Position numbers and translations under genes: made by a program. The notes beneath the pieces were generated by a model. It had not been told where the DNA came from and did not search any database. It saw nothing but the letters and a program-made list of their open reading frames with translations. Below are positions 5,954 through 23,128 of a DNA stretch of 64,000 nt, one piece after another. The DNA lies in NCBI GenBank assembly GCA_016719855.1, contig JADJYH010000014.1:45949-109948 (forward strand), written 5' to 3'. Origin of the DNA: Saprospiraceae bacterium (GTDB taxonomy: Bacteria > Bacteroidota > Bacteroidia > Chitinophagales > Saprospiraceae). Every line of letters starts with the position of its first letter. The first letter of the stretch is position 1.

Positions 5954-6655
5954 ATGGAACTCGTCATAGATGCCCACAATATCAGTAAGGTATACAACCC
6001 CGACACCATTCCCGTGTATGCGGTGAACAACGTACACCTGCACGTGCAGCGGGGCGAATTCACGGCACTTGTGGGACCCTCAGGCTCTGGCAAAACCACG
6101 CTGTTGAACCTGATTGGCGGGCTAGATGCACCCACCGAAGGTCGCATCGTCATCAATGGTACGGATATCACCGCCATGCGCACCAATGAGCTGATTGATT
6201 TTCGCTTGCGCAATATCGGCTTCGTATTTCAATCGTTCAACCTCATCCCCGTACTCACGGCGAAGGAAAACGTTGAGTTCATCATGCTGCTACAGGGCAT
6301 CGAAAAAAAAGAACGGGAGGAGCGTGTGCGCAGCCTCCTCCAAGAAGTCGGGTTAGCGGACAAGATTGACACCATGCCCTCGCAGCTTTCCGGTGGCCAA
6401 CAGCAGCGGGTAGCAGTAGCCCGGGCACTGGCCTCCAAGCCCCAGTTTATCCTGGCCGACGAACCCACGGCCAACCTCGACTCCAAGTCCGCCTCCAACC
6501 TGCTCGACATCATGGCCATGCTGAACAAAGAAGAAAACATGACCTTCCTCTTTTCCACCCACGACAGCCGGGTCATCGAGCGGGCAAGGCGGGTGATCAC
6601 GCTGGTGGATGGCCGTATTTCGTCGGACACGGCTGCTGTAAGTACGGTGCATTGA
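5954..6655 (+). CDS. ABC transporter ATP-binding protein (LolD/MacB-like)
   Basis: Walker A GPSGSGKTT, signature LSGGQQQRVAVARAL, Walker B ILADEPT. The ORF opens at 5900 (ATGA overlap with the upstream stop), but MELVIDAHNISKVY at 5954 fits the family N-terminus better. Confidence 0.9.
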   Translation: MELVIDAHNISKVYNPDTIPVYAVNNVHLHVQRGEFTALVGPSGSGKTTLLNLIGGLDAPTEGRIVINGTDITAMRTNELIDFRLRNIGFVFQSFNLIPVLTAKENVEFIMLLQGIEKKEREERVRSLLQEVGLADKIDTMPSQLSGGQQQRVAVARALASKPQFILADEPTANLDSKSASNLLDIMAMLNKEENMTFLFSTHDSRVIERARRVITLVDGRISSDTAAVSTVH

Positions 6656-6682: not shown

Positions 6683-7853
6683 ATGAAGGCTTTTCGCATC
6701 CTATTCTTTTTTGGTTGGGCTTTGACAAGCACTACGCCAATGCTCGCCCAAGAAGAAGAAAACTCGCCCAGATTGCAGTTTGGCGGCTATTTGAAAAACC
6801 TCCAATCCCTGACCAACTTGCCAGAATCCGACCTAACCCTGACCGATGGACAGTTTCATAACCGTTTGAATTTCAAGTGGTTCCCATCCAAGAACTTCAC
6901 TTTTGATGCCGAGTTGCGCAGCCGATTTTTTTACGGAGAAACCGTCAAATACACCCCAAGCTTCGAGCGGATGCTGAATGACGACCCCGACCTGGTTGAC
7001 CTCTCCTGGGTGCTGACCAGCTCGAACGGAACCTTGTTGCACACCACCCTCGACCGGTTTTGGGTCGAATGGAGAAATGAGCGCTGGGTTGTACGCACGG
7101 GACGGCAGCGAATCAACTGGGGCATCGCAACCACCTGGAATCCCAACGACCTCTTCAACGCATACAATTTCCTGGACTTCGACTACGAGGAGCGCCCCGG
7201 CTCCGATGCCATCCGGGTGCAGTACCTGACCAGCGGCTTCTCTGGTTTTGACCTCGCAGTGAACCCTGCCGACTCCGCCGAAGCTTCCGTGGCAGCCTTG
7301 AAGTATTTCTTCAATTTCAAAAAGTACGACCTACAAGTGCTCGGCGGCTATTTCAAAAACGACTTGGTGGCGGGTATGGGCTGGGCAGGTAACCTTGGCG
7401 AAGCTGGGTTCAAGGGCGAGGCCTCCTGGTTTCATTCCTCCGATACTTGGAAAGACACCAACACCGTCATTACCATCACCGCACAGGCCGACTATCTTTT
7501 CGAGGGCGATTGGTACGTGAACGGTTCATTGCTCTTCAACAGTGGCGGACAGTCGGAGGCCGTCAGCCTTTCGCAATTGCTGGCTTTCCGTCTATCGCCA
7601 AAGAACCTCATGCCAGGGAAATACACCATTGCCGCACAAGCCCAAAAAGGCGTTACACCCATCCTGAACGTTGGCGGTTCCGTGATTTTTCCCTCAAATC
7701 AACCTGCTTTTGTTGCTCCCCAACCTCAGCTATTCCCTCAGCGACAACTGGAACCTGGACCTCATCGGGCAAGTATTTTTTGCAGAAAACGACCAAGGCG
7801 AATTTGCCAACCTAGGCAACCTCGCCTTCCTGCGAGTAAAATGGAGCTATTGA
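6683..7853 (+). pseudogene. putative outer-membrane beta-barrel protein of the ABC cluster, frameshifted as given
   Basis: Signal peptide MKAFRILFFFGWALTSTTPMLAQ and alternating beta-strand-like sequence. After the T5 run 7686-7690 the +1 frame gives ...NLSYSLSDNWNLDLIGQVFFAENDQGEFANLGNLAFLRVKWSY* (stop 7851-7853), a typical barrel C-terminus. Confidence 0.6.
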
Positions 7854-7901
7854 ATCGCAACTCAAAACCCCACAGTATCTGAGGATTATCTACTTTCGCC
7901 A

Positions 7902-8990
7902 GTGACAAAACCCGTTTCCATGCAAACACATTTCGCACCCTACCCCAACCTCTACACCGATCGGCTCGAACTTCGCCCTTTTCAAGATTTGGATGCGCCA
8001 GAAATCTTTCTCCAGCGCTCCGACGAGCGCATCCTTCAACATATTTCAATCCAAAAAGCGGAGACTTTGGAAGATGCTCTCGCATTCATCCATCTGATCG
8101 AAAAAAACATGGAGAATGGCGAGGGAATGAACTGGGCCATTTGCCTGAAGGACGAAACCAAGCTCATTGGAACCATCTGTTTGTGGAACTTCCAGCCCGA
8201 AAAATCCATCGCAGAACTGGGCTATTCGCTGCATCCCGACCACTGGGGCAAGGGCTATGCCAGTGAGGCGCTGGCCGCCGTGGTGGATTTTGGCTTCGAA
8301 AAAATCGGGGCTGCCATTTTGGAAGCTTATGTTCAAACTGCCAACATCGCATCGGTCAAACTGCTCGAAAAGGCAGGATTTGTAAAAACGGGCGTGGAAG
8401 AAATTTACAGCGTTTACGCACTTTGCCGACCACCACTTGGTGCCGTCATCATGGAAACGGAGCGCCTACGCCTCCGTGAAATCATACCAGGCGACGACGC
8501 CCCTTACCTCCTCGAATTGCTGAACACACCCGACTGGCTTGCAAATATTGGCGACCGAAATGTGCGCAACCTTGACGATGCCCGCAAATATGCCATCTAC
8601 CGCATCTGGCTCAACTGCAGGTTGAAAGGTTTTAGCTTTTATGTGTTGGAACGAAAGACCGACTCCGCAAAACTTGGTATGTGCGGCCTCATCAAGCGGG
8701 ACTACCTCGACGACGTGGACATCGGCTACGCCCTGCTGCCGCAATTTTATGGCCAAGGCTACGTCGTGGAAGCCGCCGCTGCCGTCCTCAATTTTGGGAA
8801 GCAAGACCTGAAATTGCCTCGTCTCGAAGCCATCACCATCGAAAGCAACAAGCCATCTCAGCGGGTCTTGGAGAAAGTCGGGCTGCGCTTCGAACGGATA
8901 ATTACCGTACCGGGGGATGGGGAGGAATTGATGTTGTTGGGGGTAGCTTTAGGAACTAAGCTTATCGTAATAATCCATGAGTTTTCATAA
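7902..8990 (+). CDS. tandem GNAT family N-acetyltransferase (two RimJ/RimL-like domains)
   Basis: Two successive segments of about 175 aa each start with a ...RL.LRP/RL.LREI... motif and contain GNAT-like cores (HPDHWGKGYASEA; LPQFYGQGYVVEAA). Confidence 0.75.
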   Translation: MTKPVSMQTHFAPYPNLYTDRLELRPFQDLDAPEIFLQRSDERILQHISIQKAETLEDALAFIHLIEKNMENGEGMNWAICLKDETKLIGTICLWNFQPEKSIAELGYSLHPDHWGKGYASEALAAVVDFGFEKIGAAILEAYVQTANIASVKLLEKAGFVKTGVEEIYSVYALCRPPLGAVIMETERLRLREIIPGDDAPYLLELLNTPDWLANIGDRNVRNLDDARKYAIYRIWLNCRLKGFSFYVLERKTDSAKLGMCGLIKRDYLDDVDIGYALLPQFYGQGYVVEAAAAVLNFGKQDLKLPRLEAITIESNKPSQRVLEKVGLRFERIITVPGDGEELMLLGVALGTKLIVIIHEFS

Positions 8991-9803: not shown

Positions 9804-12527
9804 GTGGCAAGAAGCAGCACGACCATCGTAGGCGGACAACCCCGTGAAAAGTCGGAGAAAGTAACGCCGCTCATGGAGCAGTACTTCAAGATGAAGGCGA
9901 AGCACCCGGAGGCCATCATGCTCTTCCGGGTCGGCGATTTTTACGAGACCTTTGGGGAGGATGCCGTGAAGGCCTCCCGTGCGCTCGGCATCACCCTCAC
10001 CAGCCGCAACAACGGTGGCCAGGACATCGAACTAGCCGGATTTCCCTACCACAGCATGGACGTGTATTTGCCTCGGCTTGTGCGGGCGGGCTACCGGGTA
10101 GCCGTTTGCGAGCAGTTAGAAAAGCCGTCGCCGGAAAAGAAAATCGTGCGGCGTGGCATCGTGGAGGTGGTGACGCCAGGCGTGACGACCGACGAAAAAC
10201 TCCTCGACCACAAGACCAACAACTTCCTAGCCTCCATTTTTTTCGGCAAAAAAGACCAAGCTGGCATCGCCTTTCTCGACATCAGCACTGGCGAGTTCAT
10301 GGTCAGCGAAGGCGACATGGCCTACATGGACAAGCTGCTGCAAGGCTTCAACCCATCGGAGGTCATTTTCTCGAAAGGCGCTGCGAAGCTCTTCGAGCAG
10401 GTGTTCGGCGACCGTTTTTATACTTATACGCTTGACGACTGGGCCTTCTCCCACGATTTTACCCAAGAAAAAATAAAGGAACATTTCGAGGTTGCTTCGC
10501 TCAAAGGCTTCGGCATCGAGACCTTGGAGCTGGCGCAAACGGCTGCCGGGGCTGCCCTCCATTACCTCGCCACCACCGAGAACAAGAACCTCAAGCATAT
10601 CACCGCCATCAGCCGGATACACCAGGAGAAGTATGTCTGGCTCGACCGTTTCACCGTGCGCAACCTCGAACTGCTGCACAGCCCGCACGAGGGTGGTACG
10701 CCACTCATCAATATCCTCGACCAGACCGTGTCGCCGATGGGCGGGCGGCTTTTGAAAAAATGGGTGGTACTGCCGCTGACCTCCTTGAAGGAAATAGAGG
10801 CGAGGCACGAAGTGGTTTCCTATTTTTTGCAAAACCCCGACTTGGCGAACGAAGTGAGCGGCTACATCCGGCAAATGGGCGATTTGGAGCGGCTAATTTC
10901 GAGGGTGCCTTTGGGTAAAATACAGCCCCGGGAAGTGGTTCAGCTTCGGCGTGCGCTCGAAGTCACCGAGCCGCTGAAAGTGCTGTTGGCTGCCTCCGGC
11001 AATGTTTTTTTCGAGAAATTGGCCGAAGGGCTGAACCCCTGCAAGACCCTCCAAAACGACATCAAGCGGCAACTGGTGGAAGAACCGCCCTCACTCGTGA
11101 CCAAAGGCGGCGTCATCGCCGATGGCTTCCATGCCGAACTGGACGACCTGCGCAACACCGCCCGAAACAGCCAAGCCCTGCTCGTCGGCATACAGCAAAC
11201 GGAGGCCGAACGCACGGGCATTGACAACTTGAAAATCGGCTTCAATTCCGTCTTTGGCTACTACCTCGAAGTCACCAACAAGCACAAGGACAAGGGCCTC
11301 GTGCCGGACAACTGGGTGCGCAAACAAACGCTCACTGGCACCGAACGGTACATCACTGACGACCTGAAAAAGCTGGAAACCAAGATTCTCGGCGGCGAGG
11401 AAAGGATGCAGGAACTGGAGGTGCAGCTTTTCGAGGCGCTGGTGCTTTCCCTCAACGATTACATCCAGCCCGTGCAGCATAATGCCAGCATCGTCGCCCG
11501 GTTGGACTGCCTGTTGAGCTTCGCAAAAGTGGCGGACAAGCAGCACTACACCCGCCCCCTGCTCGACAACAGTCAAGTGATTGACATACGCAACGGCCGC
11601 CACCCGGTCATCGAGCAGCACCTGCCGCTGGGCGAGAGCTTTGTGCCAAACGACGTGTTCCTCGACAACGAGGAGCAGCAAATCATCGTCATCACCGGTC
11701 CGAACATGAGCGGTAAATCGGCGCTGCTGCGGCAAACGGCGCTCATTTGCCTGATGGCGCAGATGGGCAGTTTCGTGCCAGCCCAGAGTGCCCGCCTCGG
11801 CCTGATTGACAAGGTCTTCACCCGTGTGGGCGCCAGCGACAACCTATCCGGCGGCGAGTCCACGTTCATGGTGGAAATGACGGAGACGGCCAGCATCATG
11901 AACAATATCAGCGAGCGCAGCCTAATCATCCTCGACGAAATCGGGCGGGGAACGAGCACCTACGACGGCATCAGCATCGCTTGGAGCATCGCCGAGTACC
12001 TCCACTCGCACAACGACCTGCGGCCCAAGACGCTCTTCGCCACCCACTACCACGAGCTGAACGAACTGGCCAACAAGTTCCCCCGCATCAAGAACTTCAA
12101 CGTGGCGGTGAAGGAACTGGGCCAAAAAGTGATTTTCCTTCGGAAACTACTGCCCGGCGGCAGCCAGCACAGCTTTGGTATCCATGTGGCGAAGATGGCC
12201 GGGATGCCCCGCAGCATCGTGGAGCGGGCGAACGATATTCTCGCTCAACTGGAATTGCAGCATATTGAGCCTTCAAGTGAGGCGGTGACTTCAAGTCACC
12301 GCCTCACTTCGGGCAGTCCCAAGGTGAAAAAGGCTGGCACCAACGATATTTCAGCGCCGACTTACCAGTTGAGCATTTTCGAAACGTTTGACCCGAAGGT
12401 GGGGAAAATTAAGGAACTACTGGTAGAAATGGACGTGAATACGATGACGCCCGTGGAGTGCTTGATGCGGTTGAATGAGTTGAAAAGGTTGGCGGAGGAG
12501 GTTGTGGCAGACTTCCGAAGTCTTTGA
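9804..12527 (+). CDS. mutS: DNA mismatch repair protein MutS
   Basis: 907-aa ORF. N-terminal TPLMEQYFKMKAKHPEAIMLFRVGDFYETF, Walker A GPNMSGKS, STFMVEM, DEIGRGTSTYDG, THYHEL, clamp-binding-like QLSIF and a conserved C-terminal helix. Confidence 0.97.
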   Translation: MARSSTTIVGGQPREKSEKVTPLMEQYFKMKAKHPEAIMLFRVGDFYETFGEDAVKASRALGITLTSRNNGGQDIELAGFPYHSMDVYLPRLVRAGYRVAVCEQLEKPSPEKKIVRRGIVEVVTPGVTTDEKLLDHKTNNFLASIFFGKKDQAGIAFLDISTGEFMVSEGDMAYMDKLLQGFNPSEVIFSKGAAKLFEQVFGDRFYTYTLDDWAFSHDFTQEKIKEHFEVASLKGFGIETLELAQTAAGAALHYLATTENKNLKHITAISRIHQEKYVWLDRFTVRNLELLHSPHEGGTPLINILDQTVSPMGGRLLKKWVVLPLTSLKEIEARHEVVSYFLQNPDLANEVSGYIRQMGDLERLISRVPLGKIQPREVVQLRRALEVTEPLKVLLAASGNVFFEKLAEGLNPCKTLQNDIKRQLVEEPPSLVTKGGVIADGFHAELDDLRNTARNSQALLVGIQQTEAERTGIDNLKIGFNSVFGYYLEVTNKHKDKGLVPDNWVRKQTLTGTERYITDDLKKLETKILGGEERMQELEVQLFEALVLSLNDYIQPVQHNASIVARLDCLLSFAKVADKQHYTRPLLDNSQVIDIRNGRHPVIEQHLPLGESFVPNDVFLDNEEQQIIVITGPNMSGKSALLRQTALICLMAQMGSFVPAQSARLGLIDKVFTRVGASDNLSGGESTFMVEMTETASIMNNISERSLIILDEIGRGTSTYDGISIAWSIAEYLHSHNDLRPKTLFATHYHELNELANKFPRIKNFNVAVKELGQKVIFLRKLLPGGSQHSFGIHVAKMAGMPRSIVERANDILAQLELQHIEPSSEAVTSSHRLTSGSPKVKKAGTNDISAPTYQLSIFETFDPKVGKIKELLVEMDVNTMTPVECLMRLNELKRLAEEVVADFRSL
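12275..12309. repeat. perfect 16-3-16 palindrome inside the mutS coding region
   Basis: aagtgaggcggtgact-tca-agtcaccgcctcactt. The arms are exact reverse complements. It encodes the linker peptide EAVTSSHRLT. Its core gacttcaagtc resembles the arms of the 13-5-13 repeat at the mutS stop. Confidence 0.9.
12417..12497 (+). repeat. R0: native mutS 3' terminus, founder of a five-copy direct repeat
   Basis: ctactggtagaaatggacgtgaatacgatgacgcccgtggagtgcttgatgcggttgaatgagttgaaaaggttggcggagg recurs at 12541, 12985, 14367 and 15992. Confidence 0.95.
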
Positions 12528-12540
12528 GACTTCGGAAGTC
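12510..12540. repeat. perfect 13-5-13 inverted repeat spanning the mutS stop (terminator hairpin or recombination core site)
   Basis: gacttccgaagtc-tttga-gacttcggaagtc. The TGA stop (12525-12527) lies in the spacer and the right arm abuts repeat copy R1. Confidence 0.9.
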
Positions 12541-12575
12541 TTGCTGGAAATGGACGTGAACACGATGACACCCGT
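12541..12575 (+). repeat. R1: truncated copy of the mutS 3' terminus
   Basis: ttgctggaaatggacgtgaacacgatgacacccgt. It is in frame as LLEMDVNTMTPV, then I-stop. Differences from R0 are mostly synonymous. Confidence 0.9.
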
Positions 12576-12626
12576 AATTTGAGTTACCCACTAAATCTAG
12601 GTCATACCTATCATCAAACTATCTTT

Positions 12627-12947
12627 ATGGAAAATCTACTTGATAACGAGCCAATTGAGAAAAAAGTAAAAAAAACATTTTCCAAGGTTGCATTAGCATT
12701 TGGTATTTTTTCATTGACTTCACTATGTTTTCATGGTGTTATTTATTGGTTTAGTGAGGAAGACCCTTCATTGGATGAATACGCACCCGAATGGCTAATG
12801 ACAATCACAAACGGTACTATCATATTAGGGGTAATAGCCTCTATCATCAGTTTGATTAAAAAAGAGCCATCAAGTTTTGCAAAATGGGCGGGATTTTGTT
12901 TGAACGCAATCTTTGTGATTCTTTACCTCAGTTCGCATTTGTTGTGA
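12627..12947 (+). CDS. small membrane protein (cassette 1)
   Basis: ATG at 12627 inside ORF 12579-12947. Three hydrophobic helices. AT-rich (about 33% GC in the 60-nt line starting at 12601). Lies between repeat copies R1 and R2. Confidence 0.55.
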   Translation: MENLLDNEPIEKKVKKTFSKVALAFGIFSLTSLCFHGVIYWFSEEDPSLDEYAPEWLMTITNGTIILGVIASIISLIKKEPSSFAKWAGFCLNAIFVILYLSSHLL

Positions 12948-12984
12948 GAAATTTGATAACCGTTGGCGCAGGTATAAGGAATTC

Positions 12985-13062
12985 CTGCTAAAAATGGACG
13001 TGAATGTGATGACGCCCGTGGAGTGTTTGATGCGGTTGAATGAGTTGAAAAGGCTGGCGGAG
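12985..13062 (+). repeat. R2: copy of the mutS 3' terminus
   Basis: Encodes LLKMDVNVMTPVECLMRLNELKRLAE. By manual alignment 70 of 77 positions are identical to R0. Followed by the small palindrome cacgtc-gga-gacgtg (13075-13089). Confidence 0.9.
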
Positions 13063-13124
13063 AGATGGCGCAGTCACGTCGGAGACGTGGGGAATTTAGA
13101 TTCCAATCGTGGACTGTAGCCTTT

Positions 13125-14062
13125 TTATGGTGTTATCTGAGAACTAATCTTTTCACGCAGAAGATTAAAGCAGCAACTATACAAATATGTATTCACTGTC
13201 CTTAACTCGAATTTTATGGTCGGACTATGATGAGCTTGGTCTTGCACCGAAGAAAAATGAGTTAATTTGTGGCGAATTTTAACTATGTCAGTAATTAAAC
13301 CTTTAAAGTCATTCTCACTATTGGAAGGTAATCCCATATTGATTAAAATCTTTTTAATTGAATTTATTAATTTAGGTTCATAAGGAATAAACCTACTAAG
13401 TTCTTTTTCCTTTTTAATAAGTTCTTTTTCCACGTCTTTTGCACCAAAGGGAAAAATATCCATCCAAAATCTAAAGAAAAGAAAGAACGCAACTTCATTC
13501 TCATTACTTTTAAAGACCTTAAGGCATGTGAAAAAAAAGGAAAAGGATGGAATGTGATTTAAAGAGGGTGTAATCAAATCATATAGTGAGTTGTCAATTT
13601 TATAATTCTTTTTGTCTGACTTTAACACATAGCCACCGCCACCTATAATTGTCCCTTCGTCCAGCATTTTCTGTTCATCATCTGTTTGGGAATAAAGATT
13701 AACATAAATTCGCATCGTGTCAAAGTGAGGTGGAGTTGTTGCATATATAAGTGAAAGTAAACCTTCAAAAAGTTGTGCGGCCTCAGTTAGAACTAATTTA
13801 TAAGGCCTTAGCCTTGCTTCCAATTTATCATCTACAATGTCAATAGGTTCGGTTGATGAGATAATTTTTCTGAAAACGGAAGCAACTCATCAGAGCTAAT
13901 AATTTTTGAAATTTGAAGCGTCAACTTATCGTCTATTGACAAAATATTTGCGTCATAGTCTTTAAATTTAAAGTCGATTCTTGCCGGAGTTATTGAGTAT
14001 TTTCTGCAAAACAATGAGCTACAAGTTTCATTTATATTTTGTTTGTCTGTGAAAATTTTCAA
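13125..14062 (-). pseudogene. HEPN-like (Rx4H motif) protein, cassette 2, frameshifted as given
   Basis: ORFs 13832-14062 and 13125-13823 join if one base is added to the T5 run 13865-13869 (A-run on the coding strand). Very AT-rich (about 22% GC in the line starting at 13321). C-terminal IRHKLTHF fits the HEPN R[NHQD]xxxH motif. Confidence 0.5.
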
Positions 14063-14220
14063 AATTTGTCAAATCTGGCCTCAACAGTTGTTTCAAGTAT
14101 GATTGATGCAGGCATAAGTCCTAGTTCCAGCAACAAATAGTTTGTGCTTCCCTGTCCACGGAGGTCAAAAAATACCAGTTGTTGCAAGTCTGTTTTTGAC
14201 AATCTCAAAGTTACTTAGTT

Positions 14221-14354
14221 CTTGCAAGTTTGCAACTTGCAAGGCTTCACATGAGCGGTTTTGCAGTCATTTCTTCTGGCAAAAGTCCATGATTCCGAAA
14301 AAGCAGCCATCGTAATTTGCTAAAGTCTGCGCTTGCAAGTTGCAAACTTGCAAG
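14221..14354. repeat. pair of mutually reverse-complementary 23-nt palindromes flanking 88 bp
   Basis: cttgcaagtt-tgc-aacttgcaag at 14221-14243 and cttgcaagtt-gca-aacttgcaag at 14332-14354. Each is a 10-3-10 hairpin. The second ends 12 nt before repeat copy R3. Confidence 0.85.
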
Positions 14355-14366
14355 AACAAATAGGAG

Positions 14367-14446
14367 CTACTGCTGGAAATAGACGTGAACCCCATGACAC
14401 CCGTGGCGTGTTTGATGCGGTTGAATGCGTTGAAAAAGTTGACGGA
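14367..14446 (+). repeat. R3: copy of the mutS 3' terminus
   Basis: Encodes LLLEIDVNPMTPVACLMRLNALKKLTEQE-stop. Same orientation and frame logic as R0. Confidence 0.9.
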
Positions 14447-14477
14447 ACAGGAATGATGAATTACGGTCCGCAATAGA

Positions 14478-14996
14478 CTAAAACCCTGAAAAGAGAACCA
14501 ACAATAAATATAAGAACAAGACCGAAAGCAGAATACCTATCGCAGAAATTATCAGTATGGCTTTTGCAATGGCTTTCGACCTTCGATTTTCATCGCTGAA
14601 AAGAACAATCAAGGCAATGACAATACTTGCCAACAGGGCCAAAGAAACTAGGGTCGAAAGAATAGCCGAAGTTGCAAAGGCGGACAAAATAGTGCTAAGC
14701 CCAATCCCGCCAAAAAACAAATACAAGGCAATTCTAGCCAACTTACTTGCTTTTTCACCTTCAATTGGCCGCTTCTTCATCGCTAACCTCACATCCTTCA
14801 CCATCCTGATTCTTTTGAAAAACCCCAGCTTTTTCACCTTGCCCTCACCACGAAAGGAGGTTGCCTCGCCCTGTCCAGCTTGTTGCAAGGTTGGTTTGGT
14901 AATGCTGGACATTACAGCTTTGCACGGCGATGAAAACAAAAGGAGGAAGGAAAAGGTAAGGACGCCAATTGAACAAAAAGTTAGTGTTGACTTCAT
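14478..14996 (-). CDS. membrane protein with signal peptide (cassette 3)
   Basis: 172-aa ORF. N-terminal signal-like MKSTLTFCSIGVLTFSFLLLFSSPCKA, a basic middle region and three C-terminal hydrophobic helices. Confidence 0.55.
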   Translation of the reverse strand: MKSTLTFCSIGVLTFSFLLLFSSPCKAVMSSITKPTLQQAGQGEATSFRGEGKVKKLGFFKRIRMVKDVRLAMKKRPIEGEKASKLARIALYLFFGGIGLSTILSAFATSAILSTLVSLALLASIVIALIVLFSDENRRSKAIAKAILIISAIGILLSVLFLYLLLVLFSGF

Positions 14997-15078
14997 GGCA
15001 GTTTAGTTTCATGAATAATGAACGGCTTCCTGACTCAGCAAAGCTACCGTTATTATTGAGGTAATGGAGAATCCAACT

Positions 15079-15690
15079 TCATCGCCTATCCCAAACCGTA
15101 TACACCTGTCCCCCCTGTTGGCTCCTGAAAACATAAAACAACGTCTCCAACGGCTTGGCTGCCGCTAGTGAATCAATCGTCTGTTCAGGCAGGCTCTCCT
15201 CCCAAAGCTCGTCCACGTCGGAAAGGTCTTCCACGGTATGGTACAGGGAATTTTTGAAAAACTCCTCGCCATCGCCATCCGGGGCGAGCTGGTGGTAGAG
15301 GGGCTTTGAGCCATAGCCCAAAAAAGTGCAGTAATCGCCGCCGTGACAAGGCCAGTACCAATTTTGGTGGGTAAAAATGGGCGGCGTGGTACGCTCCAGG
15401 TCATCGGTGATTTCCCCGGCCCGTCGGTTGACCGAACCTGCCGACTTGTGCGGCTTCAGCGCCTGTAACTGCTTTTGGAGTTCGGCGATGTCGCCTTCGC
15501 AGGCGTAAACGTCCTTTTCCCGCAACGCACCCGCCAGCAGGCATTCCTCGCAGATGGCGGTAAAAGGCTCACTGCCCAGAAAAGCAGCGCCATCGAAGCA
15601 GCGTTTTTCGGCTCCGCAAAAATCGCAGCGGGTGGGCAGCTTTAGCCAGACAGCGAATTTTTCGGGATGTTCGAAGTACTTGAAATGCAT
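15079..15690 (-). CDS. CbrC family protein (UPF0167)
   Basis: 203-aa ORF starting MHFKYFEHPEKF, with C-x2-C (CDFCG) and CEEC motifs and a conserved WPCHGGDYC region, as in the CbrC (colicin E2 tolerance) family. Confidence 0.65.
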   Translation of the reverse strand: MHFKYFEHPEKFAVWLKLPTRCDFCGAEKRCFDGAAFLGSEPFTAICEECLLAGALREKDVYACEGDIAELQKQLQALKPHKSAGSVNRRAGEITDDLERTTPPIFTHQNWYWPCHGGDYCTFLGYGSKPLYHQLAPDGDGEEFFKNSLYHTVEDLSDVDELWEESLPEQTIDSLAAAKPLETLFYVFRSQQGGQVYTVWDRR

Positions 15691-15733
15691 GGTCGGTGGA
15701 TGATGGACTACTCGATTGAAATAAATGGCACAG

Positions 15734-15741
15734 CAAATCTA
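15734..15741 (-). promoter_or_regulatory. Bacteroidota-type -7 promoter box (TAGATTTG on the minus strand)
   Basis: Plus-strand CAAATCTA, 44 nt upstream of the CbrC-family start at 15690. Confidence 0.35.
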
Positions 15742-15773
15742 GTGGAATTCCGCTCACTGCTTTAAGTGGCTTA

Positions 15774-15944
15774 ATGGTAAGTAAATTGTCACTTTTAAAA
15801 GCATTGTACTTTGCCTTATTTGCTGGCCCCTTGTGCTGGATTTTATCTATTGCTGGTATTTTTGTTATAGGATTAGTGTTGAATCTAGGGCTTTGGGTTA
15901 GTAAAAAACGGCGAATCTATTCAAGAAGTAAAAGGAGAATATAG
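15774..15944 (+). CDS. 56-aa hydrophobic peptide (speculative small ORF, cassette 3)
   Basis: ATG at 15774 gives MVSKLSLLKALYFALFAGPLCWILSIAGIFVIGLVLNLGLWVSKKRRIYSRSKRRI-stop: two TM-like helices and a basic tail. Below the ORF-track cutoff. Confidence 0.3.
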   Translation: MVSKLSLLKALYFALFAGPLCWILSIAGIFVIGLVLNLGLWVSKKRRIYSRSKRRI

Positions 15945-15991
15945 CTATAAAAGTTGGACACTCAAAGTCAAGAAATATGATGAAGTGCTTT

Positions 15992-16037
15992 TGGAGTGTT
16001 TGATGCGGTTGACTGAGTTGAAAAGGTTGGCGGAAGA
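15992..16037 (+). repeat. R4: partial (3' half) copy of the mutS 3' terminus
   Basis: tggagtgtttgatgcggttgactgagttgaaaaggttggcggaaga encodes ECLMRLTELKRLAEE-stop. Confidence 0.9.
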
Positions 16038-16085
16038 ATAAGGATGAAGGTTGTTCCTAAATCTAATTCTACCAAAATTCAAAGC

Positions 16086-16113: not shown

Positions 16114-16767
16114 ATGCCCACTTCCCTCCTTAACTTCAAGCAAGCGCTAAAGCGCACCATTGCCGACAATATCGGGCAGTGCATCAAGCAATTGGAAGCA
16201 TCGCTGGACCCGACGAGGGCAGTGTACAACGACTGCTTGAACCTGCTGTCGGCTTTCAACCGCCTGGAAAAGGACAACCTCAACAACCTGCTGTCCCGGG
16301 AGGAGTACAGCCGGGAACTGTCGAAGTTGAGCGTGGCGGTGCTGAACTTGATTGATAATTTGACTGAGGAGGACTTGTCGGAGGTGCGGCACTTACGGGA
16401 GGAGGTACACGAGCGCTTGCTGGTGGTGACCCGTGCGGAACGCAGGCCAGCTATTGAGCGCTTTTTTTCCAAAAACTTTTTCAAGAACGTCCACTATATT
16501 CATTATGGCGATGCCATACCGACGGAGCGTTTTGACTTGGCGGTGCTCGACGATATTGTGACGGACCCCGCTGCTTCCTTGTACATGGAGGAATATATGG
16601 ACGGCATTGCTTGCTATATCTTGTACTTCGGGGCGCACTTCTCCATCAACCGGGAGAAATATGCGGACAAGGTCTATTTTGCCAATTCCATCTTCTCGCT
16701 GTATGCCCGTATCCGGGAGATGCTGGATTTTATCAAATATTATGACAGCGATGAGCCAACTGGGTGA
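16114..16767 (+). CDS. protein with an effector-associated-domain-like N-terminal helical module and an uncharacterised alpha/beta C-terminal domain
   Basis: The N-terminal 85 aa (LLSAFNRLEKDNLNNLLSREEYSRELSKLSVAVLNLIDNLTEEDL) resemble the helical EAD-type adaptor found at N-termini of conflict-system proteins. The C-terminal part alternates beta/alpha-like segments (LLVVT, FDLAVLDD, CYILYFG). Confidence 0.45.
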   Translation: MPTSLLNFKQALKRTIADNIGQCIKQLEASLDPTRAVYNDCLNLLSAFNRLEKDNLNNLLSREEYSRELSKLSVAVLNLIDNLTEEDLSEVRHLREEVHERLLVVTRAERRPAIERFFSKNFFKNVHYIHYGDAIPTERFDLAVLDDIVTDPAASLYMEEYMDGIACYILYFGAHFSINREKYADKVYFANSIFSLYARIREMLDFIKYYDSDEPTG

Positions 16768-17045
16768 GGAATGGCGGTGTTGATTGCACCCTTACTTTGA
16801 GCAGCGGAAAGTTGTACTCGTCGGCTCTCACCCGGTTGGCGGCTTCTGGCAGTCGTGGTAGGGCACCACGGGCGAGTCATCCTGGGCATTGGCCTTTTTC
16901 CAGAGGGCGATGCCGTGCTTGCCGAACTCCCGCTACGGATTACTTTTGTGTGTCATTAGGTGTCCCAGCATGAAGCGCAGGGGACAAGCATTCAAAAAAA
17001 AATCGTTTTTGGTTCTAAAAAAGACACTCACTGACCACCATAAAA

Positions 17046-19311
17046 ATGCAAAATCACTTCACAGAAGACGCTTGGAACATCATCGAAACGGAGTTTCGTC
17101 CAGCACAAAACGAACTGACCGAGCGCTGTTTTTCACTCGGAAACGGGAGCATCGGACATAGGGCCAGTTTTGAGGAGCAGTACTCAGGCAGCAGCCAGCC
17201 CGGTTGTTTTATTTCGGGCATTTACCACAAAGAAAAGCTGCCCATACCAAGCGGTAAAAACGGCTTCCCGGCTTATTCCACCCACTCGCTGGTTGCTCCT
17301 AACTGGCTGGGAATCAATGTTTTGATTGATGGGGAAGTGCTCGACCTCGCCGTTTGCAAAGTCAAGGATTTCCGCCGGACGCTCAACATGCGAGAGAGCT
17401 ATTTGGAGCGCATTTTTACCGTAAAAATGCTGAGTGGGAAGGAGGTGTCGGTTCGGGCAACCCGGTTTTGCAGCATCGTGGAACCGTCGGCGAGTGCCAT
17501 CAGGTATTCCGTGAAGGCACTGAATTTTGATGGCACAGTGACCTTTACGCCTTACTTGGACGGCGACATTCCGAACAACATCGGCAGCCACGAAGAGCCG
17601 GTTTGGGTGGAGGTGGAAAAATCGGTCAGGAAGCGCTCTTGCTACCTCATCATGGAAACTACCTCGACCCAGCAGCGGGCTTGCATCGGCATGAAGTTCA
17701 TTGTTTTCAAGAACAAGGGCGAGGTCAAATTGGATACCAACGGAAGGTTGGACGACAGTTTTGCAGCCTGCACGGCCTCACTCAAGTGCAAGGCGGGTGA
17801 TGAACTGACGCTGTTCAAATACGTCGGGGTAGTCAGTTCACTGGCACATGAGAAAAACAAATTGGTTTCTGAATGTAAAAAAGTGGTGAAAAAAGCCTTC
17901 GCCAATGGTTTTGACAAAATGCTGAAGGAGCATTCGGAAGCCTGGGCCACAAGGTGGGAAGCTGCCGACATCCAAGTGGATGGCAATCCGGCAGCACAGC
18001 AGGGCATCCGGTTTTGCCTGTTTCAGCTTTTGCAGAACTACGACGGGAGGGCTGGCCAATTGCCCGTCAGCCGGTCGGGGTTCAGTGGCTGGGGCTATTT
18101 GGCACCAAGAGGCGTTTTTGTTGCCGTTCTTTCAATCCGTTTTTGAGCCAAAATTTGCTCGCAACCTGTTGATTAACAGGCACAAGCAATTGCCGCAGGC
18201 GATTGAAAACGGTATTCGGCTAGGCTTTGCCGATGGGGCTGCGTTGTACCCCGCTGCCACGGTGAACGGCGAAGAATGCCACCCCGAGCCGGACATCTCG
18301 CTCGAAACCCTCCACCGAAACGCTTCGGTGGCGTTTGCCATTTTCGACTATGTCCGATACTCCGGTGACCAAGATTTCTTGGCAGATTATGGGCTGGAAA
18401 TGTTGATTGGCATCGCTCGATTCTGGTCACAGCGGGTGCATTGGTCGCAGCGCCAGCAGCAATATTTGCTGCACGGGGTCACTGGCCCCAACGAGTACGA
18501 GCGCAACGTCAACAACAACGGGTACACCAACCGCATGGCCGCTTGGTGCCTAGAATACACCCTCGAAGCCCTGAAAATCGTGGAGTCGGTGGCCCGTGAA
18601 AACTGTGCTGCGCTGCTCAAGCGGCTGAACTACCAGGGCAGTACGGAGACCGCCCGCTGGGCCGATATTGCAGCCAAAATCTACCTTCCCACGGATGAGG
18701 AACTAGGCATCTTCGAGCAACAGGACGGCTACCTTGCCAAAGAACAATTAACCGTCGCCGACTTGGGCGAAGACGACAAGCCACTGCATCGCCACTGGTC
18801 GTGGGACCGTATTTTGCGTTCCAGCTTCTTGCGGCAAGCCGATGTGCTGCAAGCGCCATTTTTTCTCGATGGCGAATTTTCAGAATCAGATTTGCGCCGC
18901 AATTTTGAGTTTTACGAACCTCGCACCGTACACGAAGGCTCGGTTTCGGCAGCAGTCCATTCCTTGCTGGCAGCTCGTTTGGGCAAGAAGGACATAGCGT
19001 TGGACCTGTTACTCCGTTCCGCACACCAAGACCTCAATGGAGAAAACGCAGACACTACCGAAGGGCTTCACCTTTCAGCAATGGCGGGTACTTGGCTGGC
19101 CATCGTCAAGGGGTTTGGTGGGATGAAAGTGGAGCCAAATATGCTTTCGTTCAGCCCGTGGCTGCCGACTGGGTGGGAGGCATACGCTTTCAAGGTGTGC
19201 TGGCGGGGCCACGTCATCGAATTGAAAATGACGGCAGCGGGAGCGTCCATCTCCAACCACACAGGGAAAAGCTTGAAAGTCAAGCTGAACGGGACAGTGC
19301 TGGAGGTGTGA
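17046..19311 (+). pseudogene. glycoside hydrolase family 65 protein (disaccharide phosphorylase type), frameshifted as given
   Basis: ORFs 17046-18146 and 17980-19311. GH65-like N-terminus (FSLGNGSIGHRASFEE) and catalytic-domain motifs (NEYERNVNNNGYTN, EGLHLSAMAG). One extra T at the T-run 18098-18100 gives ...GFSGWGYFWHQEAFLLPFF. Confidence 0.85.
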
Positions 19312-19411
19312 AAATTCATTTCAACGTCGGGGAGGTTTCGAACCTCCCCGATGTTGAAACCGGAAGATGAGGAAATTATTTTTTGACCATTTTTCAGCGG
19401 TATGGTAAATG

Positions 19412-19448
19412 AAAAAAGGGAACTTGCACGAGGCTAGTTCCCTTTTTT
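19412..19448. terminator. bidirectional intrinsic terminator
   Basis: aaaaaa-gggaact-tgcacgaggct-agttccc-tttttt, between the convergent GH65 gene and sdhB. Confidence 0.8.
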
Positions 19449-19472
19449 ATTGACTCGGAAAAGAATTCCGAC

Positions 19473-20222
19473 CTACTTGTCAGTCGAAGTAAACGACGCC
19501 CCGATGTACTCCCGGTTCAGCCTCGCAATGTTTTCCACTGAGATTTCTTTCGGACATTCCGCTTCGCAAGCCGTGATGTTGGAGCACATGCCGAAGCCCT
19601 CTTCGTCCATCTGGTGTACCATGCTCTGCGCACGGCGCTTGGCTTCCACTTGGCCTTGCGGCAACAGGGCGAGGTGCGATACCTTGGCGCTCACGAACAA
19701 CATCGCCGAAGCGTTTGGGCAGGCGGCCACGCAGGCGCCACAGCCGATGCAAGCGGCGGCTTCAAACGCCTTGCCCGCTACGTCCTTGCCAATAGGGACG
19801 GTGTTGCCGTCAGGTGCCTGTCCAGTGTCCACGCTCACGTAGCCACCCGCTTGGATGATGCGGTCGAAGGCGGAGCGGTCCACCACGAGGTCTTTCAGCA
19901 CGGGGAAAGCCCTTGCCCTGAACGGTTCGATGACGACGGTTTCCCCTTCCTTGAAGTGGCGCATGTGCAGTTGGCAGGTGGTCGTGCCGGTCTGTGGGCC
20001 GTGGGGCAGGCCATTGATGACGAGGCTGCATGTGCCACAGATACCTTCCCGGCAGTCGTGCTCAAATGCCACGGGTTCCTTTTGGCTGGAAACGAGGCTT
20101 TCGTTCAGCACGTCAAGCATTTCGAGGAACGACATGTGCTCGTTGGCCATGACCTGATAGTTCTCGAAGCGGCCTTTATCCTTTGCGTTTTTCTGACGCC
20201 AGATTTTTAAGTTTAGTTTCAT
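19473..20222 (-). CDS. sdhB: succinate dehydrogenase/fumarate reductase iron-sulfur subunit
   Basis: Start [17 protein letters not shown] at 20222. Cys clusters [22 protein letters not shown] and [12 protein letters not shown]. The upstream part of the track ORF is just the translated hairpin repeat. Confidence 0.92.
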
Positions 20223-20230
20223 TTTACTTT

Positions 20231-20314
20231 GGTTGATAAGGGTTGATGAGGGTTGATAAGGGTTGATGGGGCCCATTATCAACCCTTATCAACCCTTATC
20301 AACCCTTATCAACC
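20231..20314. repeat. tandem-repeat hairpin (GGGTTGATRA unit x4 per arm) filling the sdhA-sdhB spacer
   Basis: Left arm 20231-20268 ggttgataagggttgatgagggttgataagggttgatg. Right arm 20277-20314 is its reverse complement, with 36 Watson-Crick pairs plus 2 G-T positions. The loop is 8 nt. Confidence 0.95.
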
Positions 20315-22315
<2,001 letters not shown>

Positions 22316-22357
22316 ATTTTACAAAGTAAAAAGTAAAAAGGATTAAGTCAAAAGTGG

Positions 22358-23064
22358 TTAAGCGTGGCGCATATAAAACACGAGAGGTATCACCGCAAAT
22401 CCCAGCGGTACCAAGACCGAGTAGGCCGCCCCAACGAACTTGATGATGGGCGTGTATTTTGGGTGATTTAGGCCCATCGTTTGGAAGGCCGACTGGAAGC
22501 CGTGCCAGAGGTGAAAGGCAATCACGACCATGCTAATCACGTAGAAAACCACAAAGCCCAAATTCGTGAAGGTTTCTTCAACCAAGATATAGAGGTTTCT
22601 TACTTCTTTCCGTCAATGTTCACCAACTCAACGCCGTAGCCGATTTCACCGTAGTGCATCATCGCCCAAAACTGAACCAAGTGGATGATGAGGAACACAA
22701 AAATCACCGTTCCGTAAGCCCACATGTACTTGGCCATTACCGGATTGGTTTGCGTAGCACGGGTTTTTGTTACCGCATAACCTTGAGTGCCACGAGCGCC
22801 ACGGTTTTTTACCCAAAGGAAAATGCCCAAGAAGGCATGCAGCAAAATGAAGAAGAAATTCCCTTTGGAAATGAACTGAATCAATGGGTTGTGGCCCATG
22901 AAATCAGCATAGATGTTGAAGGCTTTACCATCGTCGTTGTGGAGCAACTGGAGGTTTCCAGCAAGGTGTACCACCAAAAAAAGGATAAGGAAAATGCCCG
23001 TCAAGGCCATTAAAAGTTTCTTGCCAATGGAAGAAGTGAGAAATCCAAAAAACCAATTGTTCAT
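22358..23064 (-). pseudogene. sdhC: succinate dehydrogenase cytochrome b subunit (b558 family), frameshifted as given
   Basis: ORFs 22600-23118 (start MNNWFFGFLTSSIGKK at 23064) and 22358-22585 (HLWHGFQSAFQTMGLNHPKYT). One base added at the T-run 22607-22609 (AAA on the coding strand) joins ...NIDGKEVRNLYILVEETF. Confidence 0.85.
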
Positions 23065-23128
23065 CTTCAACTTCGTTTTGTTGATGTTTTCAAAACGGCG
23101 GCAGCAACCAAGCTGCAAAAACGCCGGG

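Follow-up and report, generated by a model that had tools for sequence, protein, structure and literature searches.

Direct copies of the mutS 3' end form an array

We analysed a 64-kb stretch of Saprospiraceae DNA, called the window below. Here, mutS (positions 9804 to 12527, forward strand) encodes all five MutS Pfam domains and shares 88.4% identity over 2728 nt with mutS of WBZM01000048.1. The open reading frame overshoots the usual ...RLAEE end by 10 codons and enters a hairpin cassette. The 3.6-kb array consists of the mutS 3' end (the last ~90 nt), four further copies in direct orientation, and the DNA between them. The first gene past the array (16114 to 16767, forward strand) encodes an EAD11-domain protein (Pfam EAD11, E 1.4e-13; NARF, E 0.0014, is below cut-off). 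Since this gene varies among relatives, with a homologue in L093 and none in L101, it may be part of the island. Note that L-numbers (L046, L082, L086, L090, L093, L094 and L101-L104) are labels for relatives' sequences.

The functional mutS end, R0 (12410 to 12500), is our reference repeat, with position 0 at nucleotide 12500. All copies are on the forward strand. R1 (12534 to 12575) has only the 5' part of the repeat, from -88 to -46, is 83% identical to R0, and ends at the 5' edge of a core segment described below. R2 (12975 to 13065; -91 to 0) is a full relic, 91% identical to R0 over 88 nt, with a tail of its own sequence and a stop at 13119. R3 (14360 to 14450; -89 to 0), also a full relic, is 82% identical to R0, has the tail ...KLTEQE*, and has L093 130-205 as its orthologue. 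R4 (15974 to 16041; -63 to 0), the copy farthest from mutS and the most diverged, ends ...RLAEE with a TAA stop and is probably the oldest displaced mutS end. Our alignment puts the direct repeats where an earlier note on this sequence had placed them, with two corrections. Between R0 and R2 there are 8 differences in 88 positions, rather than 7 in 77. R4, described as a 3' half only (15992 to 16037), is not a clean half copy because the gapped alignment extends to about 15974 (-63).

A 29-nt central motif occurs four times in the window, always inside the array, and not once in 100 shuffles. Outside the array, the mutS end does not recur in these 64 kb. Scanning the window for other gene-end repeat arrays revealed none besides that at mutS. 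Of 21 copies, nearly all lose homology at the stop codon (0 to -7), whereas on the 5' side it begins at various positions between -42 and -205. Every copy has an unrelated tail and its own stop (TAA, TGA or TAG), within 0-3 codons. In two copies, truncation on the right falls at -46 and -49, the core's 5' edge, and the left limit of some copies is near -47 to -55. The mutS frame, said to be open throughout, is so in all window copies, but some relics in relatives have in-frame stops.

Small cassettes separate the repeats

The hairpin cassette (12507 to 12544) has no ORF and forms a predicted 17-bp stem (-17.5 kcal/mol, z -7.6). The same hairpin is found in L104, ahead of an outer-membrane-like cassette gene, and half of it in L082. 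Cassette 1 encodes a 122-aa predicted membrane protein (12579 to 12947, same strand as mutS, GC about 0.35) with no significant family match in Pfam, NCBIfam or PADLOC. Cassette 2 carries an AT-rich gene on the reverse strand (13125 to 14062, GC 0.30-0.35), split into 232-aa and 76-aa ORFs that have no match in Pfam or NCBIfam. The product may be HEPN/ApeA-like, as it contains the motif RHKLTH and weakly matches Cas13-ApeA in PADLOC (E 0.005). The Rx4H HEPN-like call made earlier for the 232-aa protein has no support beyond these two. An inverted-repeat element (14171 to 14360) abuts R3. Its 29-nt arms (14215 to 14243 and 14332 to 14360) are 97% complementary (fold z -5.95), and a 75-nt homologue is present in the arrays of L082/L101 and L086.

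Cassette 3 contains three ORFs. On the reverse strand are genes for a 172-aa signal-peptide/membrane protein (14478 to 14996) and a UPF0167/CbrC-family protein (15079 to 15690), the latter identity agreeing with that previously suggested (Pfam PF03691, E 1.3e-12; NCBIfam CbrC below cut-off). A 56-aa membrane peptide (15774 to 15944, forward strand) is 89% conserved in L093. The 172-aa protein is 43% identical to the product of L094 2507-3049, and also similar to that of L094 1416-1940. These L094 paralogues lie directly after repeats, and other homologues are in contexts without mutS. None of the membrane proteins in the array has a family match. In windowed counts, GC content is 0.30-0.46 in most of the array compared with 0.54-0.61 in mutS, which corrects the earlier hand counts; the CbrC gene is at 0.57-0.59.

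Arrays in relatives have different cassettes

Six further assemblies or contigs of relatives have the same type of array, with different cassettes, and similar arrays appear in independent assemblies from NCBI, JGI, ENA and Logan. The cassettes are discrete, as the earlier note held, and differ in content among relatives. Therefore, the arrangement shows presence/absence polymorphism, rather than being fixed, and the assembly artefact that the note had considered is ruled out as the source of such arrays. Note that relatives' contigs often break at the repeat; L103 stops 5 nt past the stop codon.

Unit sizes across arrays range from 0.04 to 1.6 kb, the smallest (43-95 nt) having no ORF. Tiny units recur, among them the inverted-repeat element and a 95-nt hairpin that is seen three times. 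Two cassettes shared by L102 and L082 enclose a 139-aa gene in the former and the 95-nt hairpin in the latter. In L046, a more distant Cytophagales MAG, a RelB/ParE cassette sits between copies of that genome's own mutS end (110 nt, 92% identical; the translated copies differ at 2 residues). The window and L093 are 94% identical rightwards from R3, and unrelated to the left of it. R0 and R2 of L094 are a roughly reciprocal mosaic, with about a dozen informative sites. The switch points are unlike between comparisons: about -77 to -61 for the window and L093, and -66 to -57 for L094.

The copies diverge as coding sequence around a frozen core

Outside a 30-nt core, we counted 65 synonymous and 48 non-synonymous differences (about 57% synonymous, with 19% expected). 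Taken separately, the flanks give synonymous to non-synonymous counts of 41:33 and 24:15, compared with 19-20% synonymous expected (p 2e-11 and 4e-9). Because flank differences are enriched in synonymous changes, the data support the view that the copies are former functional mutS ends. The earlier note had suggested this from a synonymous bias, which is now quantified, and from the separate stops.

The core (GTGGAGTGCTTGATGCGGTTGAATGAGTTG) spans 12453 to 12482 in R0 and aligns with 13018 to 13047 in R2, 14403 to 14432 in R3, and 15991 to 16020 in R4, all on the forward strand. It is the putative crossover segment, on grounds of third-position and synonymous conservation. Conservation at third codon positions is 96% within the core and 53-82% in the flanks, and synonymous differences per nt are 0.015 in the core compared with 0.10 in both flanks. 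The pattern is present in the window alone. Non-synonymous decay is alike in core and flanks. These 10 codons are not frozen in seven other Bacteroidota genera (third-position identity 42%, with 45% in the flank).

Identity to the functional consensus falls from mutS-proximal to distal copies: 89, 83 and 75% in the window, 98, 86 and 76% in L090, and 92 and 76% in L094. Since divergence increases away from mutS in three of four arrays, we conclude that units were added at the mutS end. This age gradient agrees with the tandem accretion, by serial insertion of units with a replacement 3' end, put forward in the note. Repeat identity is 81.7% within arrays and 81.4% between them, so there is no general homogenisation.

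No recombinase is encoded in or near the array

Pfam searches of about 50 ORFs in the window detected no integrase, recombinase or transposase, as the earlier note had said. Similarly, the 131 six-frame ORFs (at least 55 aa) from 7 arrays include no integrase, recombinase or transposase and no fragment of one, and no recombinase was found in 21 kb of L101. Because the coverage is 64 kb of one genome and 21 kb of another, a recombinase could be encoded elsewhere. A survey of 80 Bacteroidota genomes showed no enrichment of integrases beside mutS, and none of the phage, plasmid and viral contigs searched carries the mutS-end motif. Fold prediction for the repeat gave no structure (z about 0), unlike an attC hairpin, and dyad symmetry was not evident on inspecting the core by eye. 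The variable 5' limits, the mutS-like sequence that flanks the likely crossover on either side, the lack of an obvious dyad or predicted fold, and the differing switch points all fit homology-driven crossover at least as well as the site-specific insertion that the note had favoured.

A candidate route to the array

We propose, with a probability of roughly 0.45, that the array is a lineage-specific accretion island on the mutS 3' end, made of small units with a replacement end that cross over in the core via host homologous recombination. An incoming unit would be a small DNA piece, its cargo measuring between 95 nt and about 1.6 kb, and would bring its own last roughly 50-200 nt of mutS, stop codon included. 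A reciprocal crossover between this copy and the resident functional end, in or adjoining the DNA-identical core, would insert the unit. The unit's copy would then complete mutS, with the earlier end displaced downstream as an untranslated relic. Repeated rounds at the functional end would generate a polar array, the newest unit adjoining mutS. Subsequent inter-repeat recombination could delete, swap or truncate cassettes, and so explain why relatives differ in content. The catalyst would be encoded outside the array and its surroundings. Units might be circles, released from other arrays and inserted in Campbell fashion, or might be exchanged between arrays by double crossovers. Note that we infer the circular intermediate, crossover position and enzyme.

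We slightly favour host homologous recombination over a recombinase in trans. In every unit the core lies between stretches of mutS-like sequence, the length of homology is not constant, switch points differ, the repeat has no fold, no recombinase was found, and the motif is on none of the phage, plasmid and viral contigs searched. Conversely, homologous recombination is inefficient where about 30 nt are identical and similarity over about 90 nt is 85-90%, and the frozen core has the exact look of a recombinase recognition site. Homologous recombination also leaves unaccounted for the origin of the first repeat, the restriction of arrays in the window to mutS, and the use of the same gene in a second lineage. 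Frequent gene conversion might be expected to homogenise repeats, which is not seen; two truncated copies stop at the core edge; and the mosaic evidence is about a dozen sites. To our knowledge, nearly all known gene-end repeat arrays are integrase-made. The same topology could arise if a dedicated site-specific recombinase were encoded elsewhere, on the chromosome or a rarely resident master element, which we consider somewhat less likely. The cassettes would then be integrase-less satellites (CIME-like, or integron-cassette-like with the mutS end as attachment site), and the core both recognition and crossover site. Conservation of the core at the DNA level, without synonymous change and only in array-bearing genomes, suits this, as do the truncations, the copies starting near -47 to -55, the second, diverged lineage using the same gene end, and the specificity for mutS within the window. 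Integrases are known as the usual makers of such arrays. Integrase-less CIMEs are also known (PMC5704250). However, an integrase needs neither a variable 5' extent nor mutS-like sequence 5' of the core, and a long-kept untranslated attP arm would not diverge in the coding-type manner of the 5' flanks. The core without evident dyad symmetry, the unfolded repeat, the shifting switch points, the absence of recombinases or fragments from 7 arrays, the window and L101, and the lack of integrase enrichment beside mutS in 80 genomes also count against a recombinase in trans.

Alternatively, integrase-carrying islands or prophages may have integrated serially at the mutS 3' end and decayed, losing integrase and transfer modules and leaving cargo and att repeats. 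The accretion footprint and age gradient agree with such decay, as does cargo that is rich in AT and belongs to defence or toxin-antitoxin types. CIME-type decay is documented (PMC5704250), and partial targets are scattered in tycheposon islands (10.1101/2020.12.28.424599). Nevertheless, decayed islands are improbable: about 20 cassettes in 7-8 arrays contain zero integrase fragments, units are only 43-95 nt at smallest and about 1.6 kb at most, identical tiny modules (the three 95-nt hairpins and the inverted-repeat element) occur in different arrays, and the mutS end is on none of the phage, plasmid or viral contigs searched. Homology-facilitated illegitimate recombination, which we find similarly doubtful, would require no recombinase. 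Linear DNA from a relative, anchored on the mutS body, would be joined at its far end inside the resident mutS end, leaving the whole resident end as a relic; only short-relic events would survive because long repeats delete quickly. Variable left boundaries and the age gradient agree with this, and coding-type divergence in both flanks is expected if whole relics were once functional. Yet the frozen core, the reciprocal mosaic of L094 and the ORF-less 43-95-nt units between repeats are left unaccounted for, and the same small modules are found in several arrays. Moreover, such a joint would lie upstream of the anchor's end, a rare and topologically awkward outcome. In-place origin (tandem or target-site duplication, then drift), or an assembly artefact, is very improbable. 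While the repeats are direct and closely spaced, and contigs often end at them, this is largely refuted by the arrays in independent assemblies, by mutually unrelated cassettes of differing GC, and by inter-copy divergence that is 55-62% synonymous and not neutral (L046 copies differ at just 2 residues). The repeats also far exceed any known target-site duplication in length.

Comparison with known islands

In the icd gene, phage 21 and e14 supply an alternative 3' end with mostly synonymous differences, and the displaced end becomes a far-side pseudo-copy, as at mutS. In that case, however, one large prophage brings its own integrase and crosses over at a fixed point, unlike an array of tiny integrase-less units. 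The likeness to integron cassettes drawn earlier held for size, and nothing beyond size counted as resemblance to the cassettes. As in integrons and integrase-less attC clusters (CALINs), there are small, mostly single-gene cassettes, including toxin-antitoxin and ORF-less units, in a polar array with entry at one end. Unlike integrons, the mutS array has no IntI or attI, its separator is an unstructured coding fragment rather than an attC hairpin, and cargo is in both orientations. Neither cassette units nor repeats of the mutS 3' end are known to us from the mutS-rpoS region of E. coli. This region, in a different phylum, resembles the array in having a highly variable mosaic segment directly after mutS (PMC4209514). 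Dehalococcoides islands, as outlined in PMC3146451, likewise insert site-specifically into the end of a conserved gene present in one copy, but this is the tmRNA gene ssrA, rather than a protein gene, and mobilisation is site-specific.

The earlier view that no described element class matches was overstated, since CIME accretion (PMC5704250), tycheposon/tRNA islands (10.1101/2020.12.28.424599) and the E. coli microcin H47 island (PMC3191183, PMC5426353) are close analogues. The last is small, flanked by direct repeats, without its own site-specific recombinase, and removed by recombination between those short repeats; it is a single island, though, and its repeats are not a housekeeping-gene end (PMC3191183, PMC5426353). 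In Prochlorococcus tycheposon islands, as at mutS, newcomers push older units inward, partial targets are scattered, and cargo is adaptive or defensive (10.1101/2020.12.28.424599). Those islands target tRNA genes using tyrosine recombinases, fragments of which are left behind, whereas the mutS array uses a protein gene and has no such fragments. CIMEs are described among ICESt1/ICESt3-related islands at the fda 3' end of Streptococcus thermophilus (as summarised in PMC5704250, citing Pavlovic et al. 2004). They too lack integration genes, have direct att-type repeats that include a protein-gene end, and stack in tandem at the gene. Unlike the mutS array, CIMEs derive from ICEs or IMEs and need an integrase supplied by a related element, which is found in the strain itself or in sister strains (PMC5704250). 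No integrase is seen at mutS, where unit size is 0.04-1.6 kb, not many kb, and homology length varies per unit. By analogy with these systems, the array is best read as an unusual, miniature form of known island building, of the CIME and tRNA-island accretion type.

Results

The last ~90 nt of mutS (R0, 12410-12500) recur four more times downstream, in direct orientation. The gene itself (9804-12527, forward strand) encodes all five MutS domains (Pfam). The further copies are also on the forward strand. R1 (12534-12575) has only the 5' part of the repeat, R2 (12975-13065) and R3 (14360-14450) are 91% and 82% identical to R0, and R4 (about 15974-16041) retains the 3' part and the core, a 30-nt segment at 12453-12482 in R0. 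Note that we refer to the DNA between consecutive repeats as cassettes, to the downstream copies as relics, and to all repeats and cassettes behind mutS as the array. All four occurrences of the central motif in the 64-kb window are within the array, and 100 shuffles gave none. Repeat comparison therefore recovers the four copies proposed in the earlier note, and the motif, which might have been a dispersed repeat, is confined to the mutS array within the window. No comparable gene-end repeat array was found at any other window gene. As had also been claimed, array and flanks differ in composition. The GC content is 0.30-0.46 for most of the array, versus 0.54-0.61 for mutS, with the CbrC gene (0.57-0.59) as the exception.

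Cargo of the window cassettes comprises a 122-aa membrane protein, an AT-rich split gene (13125-13823 / 13832-14062), a 172-aa membrane protein, a UPF0167/CbrC protein and a 56-aa membrane peptide. The CbrC assignment made previously is upheld (E 1.3e-12). Conversely, the supposed HEPN-like protein, encoded by the split gene, has an RHKLTH motif and a weak match to ApeA/HEPN (E 0.005). Directly after R4 is a gene (16114-16767) with an EAD11 domain (E 1.4e-13) and a sub-threshold match to NARF, a domain type described from NTP-dependent conflict systems. This gene is conserved in one related contig (L093) and absent from another (L101). Exact-sequence look-ups with the window MutS and EAD11 proteins gave no match, and homologues of the 172-aa membrane protein elsewhere are in contexts without mutS. 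Of six ORFs carried by the window cassettes, four lie on the minus strand, and gene orientation is likewise mixed in the arrays of L101 and L094, a further relative. Pfam scans of about 50 window ORFs identified genes of ordinary chromosomal type; integrases, transposases and resolvases were absent.

Metagenome contigs were scanned for an exact 23-nt stretch of the core. Of 13 loci detected, five are arrays of the same lineage and eight are unrelated. Five of the latter are the end of another MutS-family protein, and three are chance matches. The other protein, ending …ELMRLIGLKV before its stop, is found in different metagenome samples (L085, L087-L089, L091 and L092); there, 23 nt of the core were matched through coding-sequence coincidence, and there are no arrays. 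Later look-ups added further arrays or contigs (L094, L101, L102, L103 and L104). Most related contigs are 1-3 kb long and the lineage is poorly sampled.

The locus L082/L101 (NCBI MAG WBZM01000048.1) has a mutS 88% identical to that of the window. Here, the mutS end is followed by a 95-nt hairpin, a repeat, a 429-aa outer-membrane-like gene, a second repeat and the same hairpin again. Next are a repeat, a cytochrome-c-like gene, another repeat, and PhyH and CFA-synthase genes. An inverted-repeat element and the last relic form the distal end. Beyond are prolyl oligopeptidase, beta-lactamase-like and glucosaminidase genes, syntenic with 23.3-27.9 kb of the window. Window and L101 are thus bounded by the same conserved flanks, mutS on one side and these three genes on the other, while the content between differs. 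The earlier note had asked if relatives' mutS is followed directly by the gene at 16114 or by the GH65 gene. In L101, mutS is followed by the array and then the oligopeptidase gene, and the EAD11-domain gene is absent. Between R4 and the oligopeptidase gene (16114-23300), the window has about 7 kb with the EAD11-domain gene, GH65 and sdhCAB. In the corresponding stretch of L101 (14722-14830), the last relic directly adjoins the oligopeptidase gene, without this block. Hence, the succinate dehydrogenase block is placed differently in the two genomes.

Other relatives differ again. In L094, XisH/XisI lie between the mutS end and a 184-nt repeat, beyond which are genes for two proteins paralogous to the 172-aa membrane protein of the window, as well as a DUF433 gene and the 95-nt hairpin. 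The L102 array has the outer-membrane-like and cytochrome-c-like cassettes in the order of L082, with a 139-aa gene in place of the L082 hairpin. L093 and the window are 94% identical from R3 to the EAD11 gene and unrelated left of R3. Cassette content downstream of mutS therefore varies among relatives. Since the same kind of array is present in independent assemblies, we conclude that it is real, reproducible and polymorphic, and not the assembly artefact that had been considered.

A GTDB scan for relatives, using a conserved peptide, gave MutS proteins at most 67% identical among the matches listed. The best of these was L046, a distant Cytophagales MAG with a quite different mutS end. There, a RelB/ParE pair is flanked by a copy of that same mutS end, 110 nt long and 92% identical. 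Among 80 Bacteroidota mutS loci fetched, only L046 has such a repeat, and the 80 loci show no integrase enrichment just downstream of mutS. Note that, in this sole array found outside the window's lineage, the second mutS-end repeat is directly followed by a gene for a Rad52/Rad22-family single-strand annealing protein (7576-8079, E 1.7e-18).

The 95-nt hairpin has 23-nt terminal inverted repeats (z -5.4). Copies are at 6090-6186 and 4448-4545 in L082, with a remnant at 1275-1305, and at 2319-2411 in L094. They occur only within arrays, each always with a full repeat on one side and a 5'-shortened one on the other; in L082 the first bases of the hairpin provide the mutS stop codon. Hairpins are present at some junctions only and behave as cassettes themselves. 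We rejected a role as recombination sites, or as a genome-wide MITE, because they are confined to arrays. The window also has a perfect 16-bp-stem hairpin (12275-12308, z -8.8), within the coding sequence of the mutS linker, that adds about 15 residues to MutS (…SSEAVTSSHRLTSGS…). It is missing from L082/L101, L094 and L103. A palindromic element seems to have been inserted here, in frame, into an essential gene. The hairpin within the window array (12507-12544), the 95-nt hairpin and the inverted-repeat element have no copies in other parts of the window or of L101; we treat them as ORF-less cassettes or terminators. Separately, one cassette of L090, another array of the lineage, contains three tandem ~42-nt units (…CAGGGTTATAACCCTGTGCTTC…, 430-570), for which the Rfam score is a spurious miRNA-like hairpin.

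Elsewhere in the window, the reading frame of the prolyl oligopeptidase gene shifts near its 3' end (23270-23431, tblastn frames -3 and -1), and GH65 is split into two overlapping ORFs (17046-19311). These are either assembly indel errors or pseudogenes, and the same may explain why the AT-rich cassette gene is split. Hence, arguments from ORF integrity need care. The segment from 30000 to 34000, upstream of SprB-repeat genes, has a GC content of 0.38, very strong AT skew (0.45) and two large minus-strand ORFs (29942-31111 and 31199-33100) without a Pfam match. The octamer GGGATATT / GGGTTATT forms short intergenic runs at 28339-28388 and 54750-54799, 26 kb apart. An N6/N4 DNA methyltransferase gene (50085-50792) has no obvious restriction partner among neighbouring Pfam matches.

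We aligned 21 repeat copies, numbering positions upstream of the mutS stop (position 0 is 12500 in R0). In nearly all, homology ends on the right at the stop codon (0 to -7). A stop codon of its own (TAA, TGA or TAG) follows each copy after 0-3 codons, with an unrelated tail beyond. A few copies are right-truncated, with ends at -46, -49, -17 and -16. The 5' limit is at -205/-184, -135 or -125 in some copies, clusters between -92 and -74 in others, and is also found at -68, -63, -55 and -42. Secondary structure of the repeat is no better than in shuffled controls (z +0.9 to -0.24, both strands). Hence, the repeat is not attC-like.

Codon-aware counts compared 13 relic copies with the functional consensus. 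Synonymous and non-synonymous differences number 41 and 33 in the 5' flank (p 2e-11) and 24 and 15 in the 3' flank (p 4e-9), against 19-20% synonymous expected; note that these p-values are indicative only, since the copies are not independent. In the 30-nt core (-47 to -18) the counts are 6 and 19, with no enrichment. Per nt, the 5' flank, core and 3' flank have comparable numbers of non-synonymous differences (0.05-0.08), while synonymous differences are 0.10 per nt in each flank and 0.015 in the core. We conclude that the copies diverged while coding. They are therefore former or donor functional ends, as had been suspected, rather than fresh duplications that drifted. We also conclude that the core is kept constant at the DNA level. 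As this is seen in the window copies alone, it is not an effect of core-based searching. In seven array-less Bacteroidota genera, first and second positions of these ten codons are 95% identical; third positions are only 42% identical, similar to the 45% of the flank.

Polarity was measured as the identity between the functional consensus and the last 63 nt of each copy. With growing distance from mutS, it falls from 89 to 83 to 75% in the window, from 98 to 86 to 76% in L090, and from 92 to 76% in L094; it is flat along L082. This fits a process in which units join at the functional end and older ends are displaced outward. Repeats are no more alike within arrays (81.7%) than between them (81.4%). 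Hence, we rejected general concerted evolution, although one adjacent pair, L082 Rd/Re, has two derived core changes in common.

The topology that fits has the resident functional end cross over reciprocally with the copy borne by an incoming unit; the unit's copy would then complete mutS, and the resident end would turn into the following relic. In agreement with this, L094 R0 and R2 form a roughly reciprocal mosaic relative to L082 R0; the 5' limit of an internal repeat moves with the left cassette and its tail with the right; and the frozen core is present in every copy. Our leading reading, at a probability of roughly 0.45, is that host homologous recombination drives insertion. Every unit has mutS-like sequence on both sides of the core, which an integrase would not need, and the length of this homology varies between units. 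Furthermore, inferred switch points differ (about -77 to -61 versus -66 to -57), 5' flanks diverge in a coding-type manner, and the core has no obvious dyad symmetry by eye. A clean half-site at -47 had seemed proof of a fixed crossover. This argument was dropped because gapped alignment put R4 at -63 and L090 Rd at -55; common derived bases of window R3 and L093, back to about -60, also speak against it.

The varying switch points and 5' limits weigh, too, against a site-specific recombinase acting in trans. Neither the 131 six-frame ORFs of seven arrays, nor the window, nor 21 kb of L101 yielded a recombinase or a fragment of one, in line with the earlier claim that none is nearby. Similarly, there are no motif carriers in IMG/VR, PLSDB plasmids or GenBank phages. 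We nevertheless regard such an enzyme as the strongest competitor, if somewhat unlikely. In length, the frozen core equals a minimal attachment site, its 5' edge is where two truncated copies stop, and mutS is the target in two diverged lineages. Arrays of gene-end repeats are, moreover, normally made by integrases. That the arrays are decayed integrase-bearing islands is improbable, and linear homology-facilitated illegitimate recombination seems equally so. In-place duplication or artefact is very improbable, given coding-type divergence and recurrence in independent assemblies.

Discussion

The earlier note likened the units to integron cassettes but could match the array to no described class. 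In size, the likeness holds. However, integrons have an IntI tyrosine recombinase, with attI beside the array (not required for CALINs). In both, attC sites, imperfect palindromes that fold as hairpins, separate every cassette, and cassette genes are mostly co-oriented and promoterless. The array has no IntI, no attC fold and mixed gene orientation. Phage_integrase and other recombinase families are absent from the window ORFs, L101 and the 131 array ORFs, and we rejected attC identity because there is no fold and Rfam matches are only spurious miRNA-type hairpins. Xer-dependent integrative elements (IMEX) use a dif-like 28-bp site whose two inverted arms bind Xer; it is usually located at the replication terminus. 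This identity was also set aside, as improbable: the core has no symmetry by eye, the repeat no predicted fold and the locus no GC-skew switch. Transposons and MITEs end in terminal inverted repeats, leave a short duplication of constant length and go with a transposase somewhere. Target-site duplication was discarded since the repeats are 42-205 nt, variable in length, diverged in a coding-type manner and without a transposase. The 95-nt hairpin does have terminal inverted repeats, like a MITE, but is seen only inside arrays. Recombinase-free transfer hotspots have variable content between conserved flanking genes and no mobility genes. Both apply here; the portable internal repeats are an extra feature outside that concept.

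Accretion islands are closer, so the claim that no class matches stands only in part. CIMEs are integrase-less units in tandem accretion at a target-gene end (PMC5704250), and in tycheposon islands new elements push older ones inward, with partial target copies scattered (10.1101/2020.12.28.424599). The array footprint matches both. It resembles the MccH47 island (PMC3191183, PMC5426353) in having no recombinase. CIMEs go with a cognate integrase, be it in the array, as a relic or on a related element at that site in relatives; here none was found in the 7-8 arrays, nor is one enriched downstream of mutS in the 80 loci. CIMEs also excise as circles and have a fixed crossover in a common core; here a frozen core is present, but inferred switch points and 5' limits of homology vary. 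What sets the array apart from all three is a target at the end of a protein-coding repair gene, tiny units (43 nt to about 1.6 kb), no integrase trace and homology length that differs unit to unit. The array is most aptly classed with accretion islands at gene ends, as a variant of these. In the literature searched, we came upon no account of a mutS-end cassette array.

A bolder and rather doubtful proposal is that the mutS end may be the docking site of a self-perpetuating, integron-like cassette platform. The frozen 30-nt core would be a universal attachment site with no local integrase, and tiny units of replacement end plus cargo would circulate between strains, catalysed by host recombination alone or an unrecognised mutS-end-specific recombinase in trans.

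Practical value is limited for now, as this sparsely sampled lineage has no isolates. The core, with synonymous positions frozen only in array-bearing genomes, is a concrete testable site. It raises the questions of whether short portable homology alone can drive gene capture, and whether an unrecognised trans-acting recombinase is responsible. We know of no repeated mutS ends in the mutS region of E. coli. A variable segment does, however, directly follow mutS in that species (PMC4209514), and the arrays are a further instance, from Bacteroidota, of the unusual variability seen repeatedly in the DNA just behind mutS. If our reading is true, islands can grow one cassette at a time, at the end of a gene that codes for a housekeeping protein, with no mobility gene nearby and in units as small as integron cassettes.
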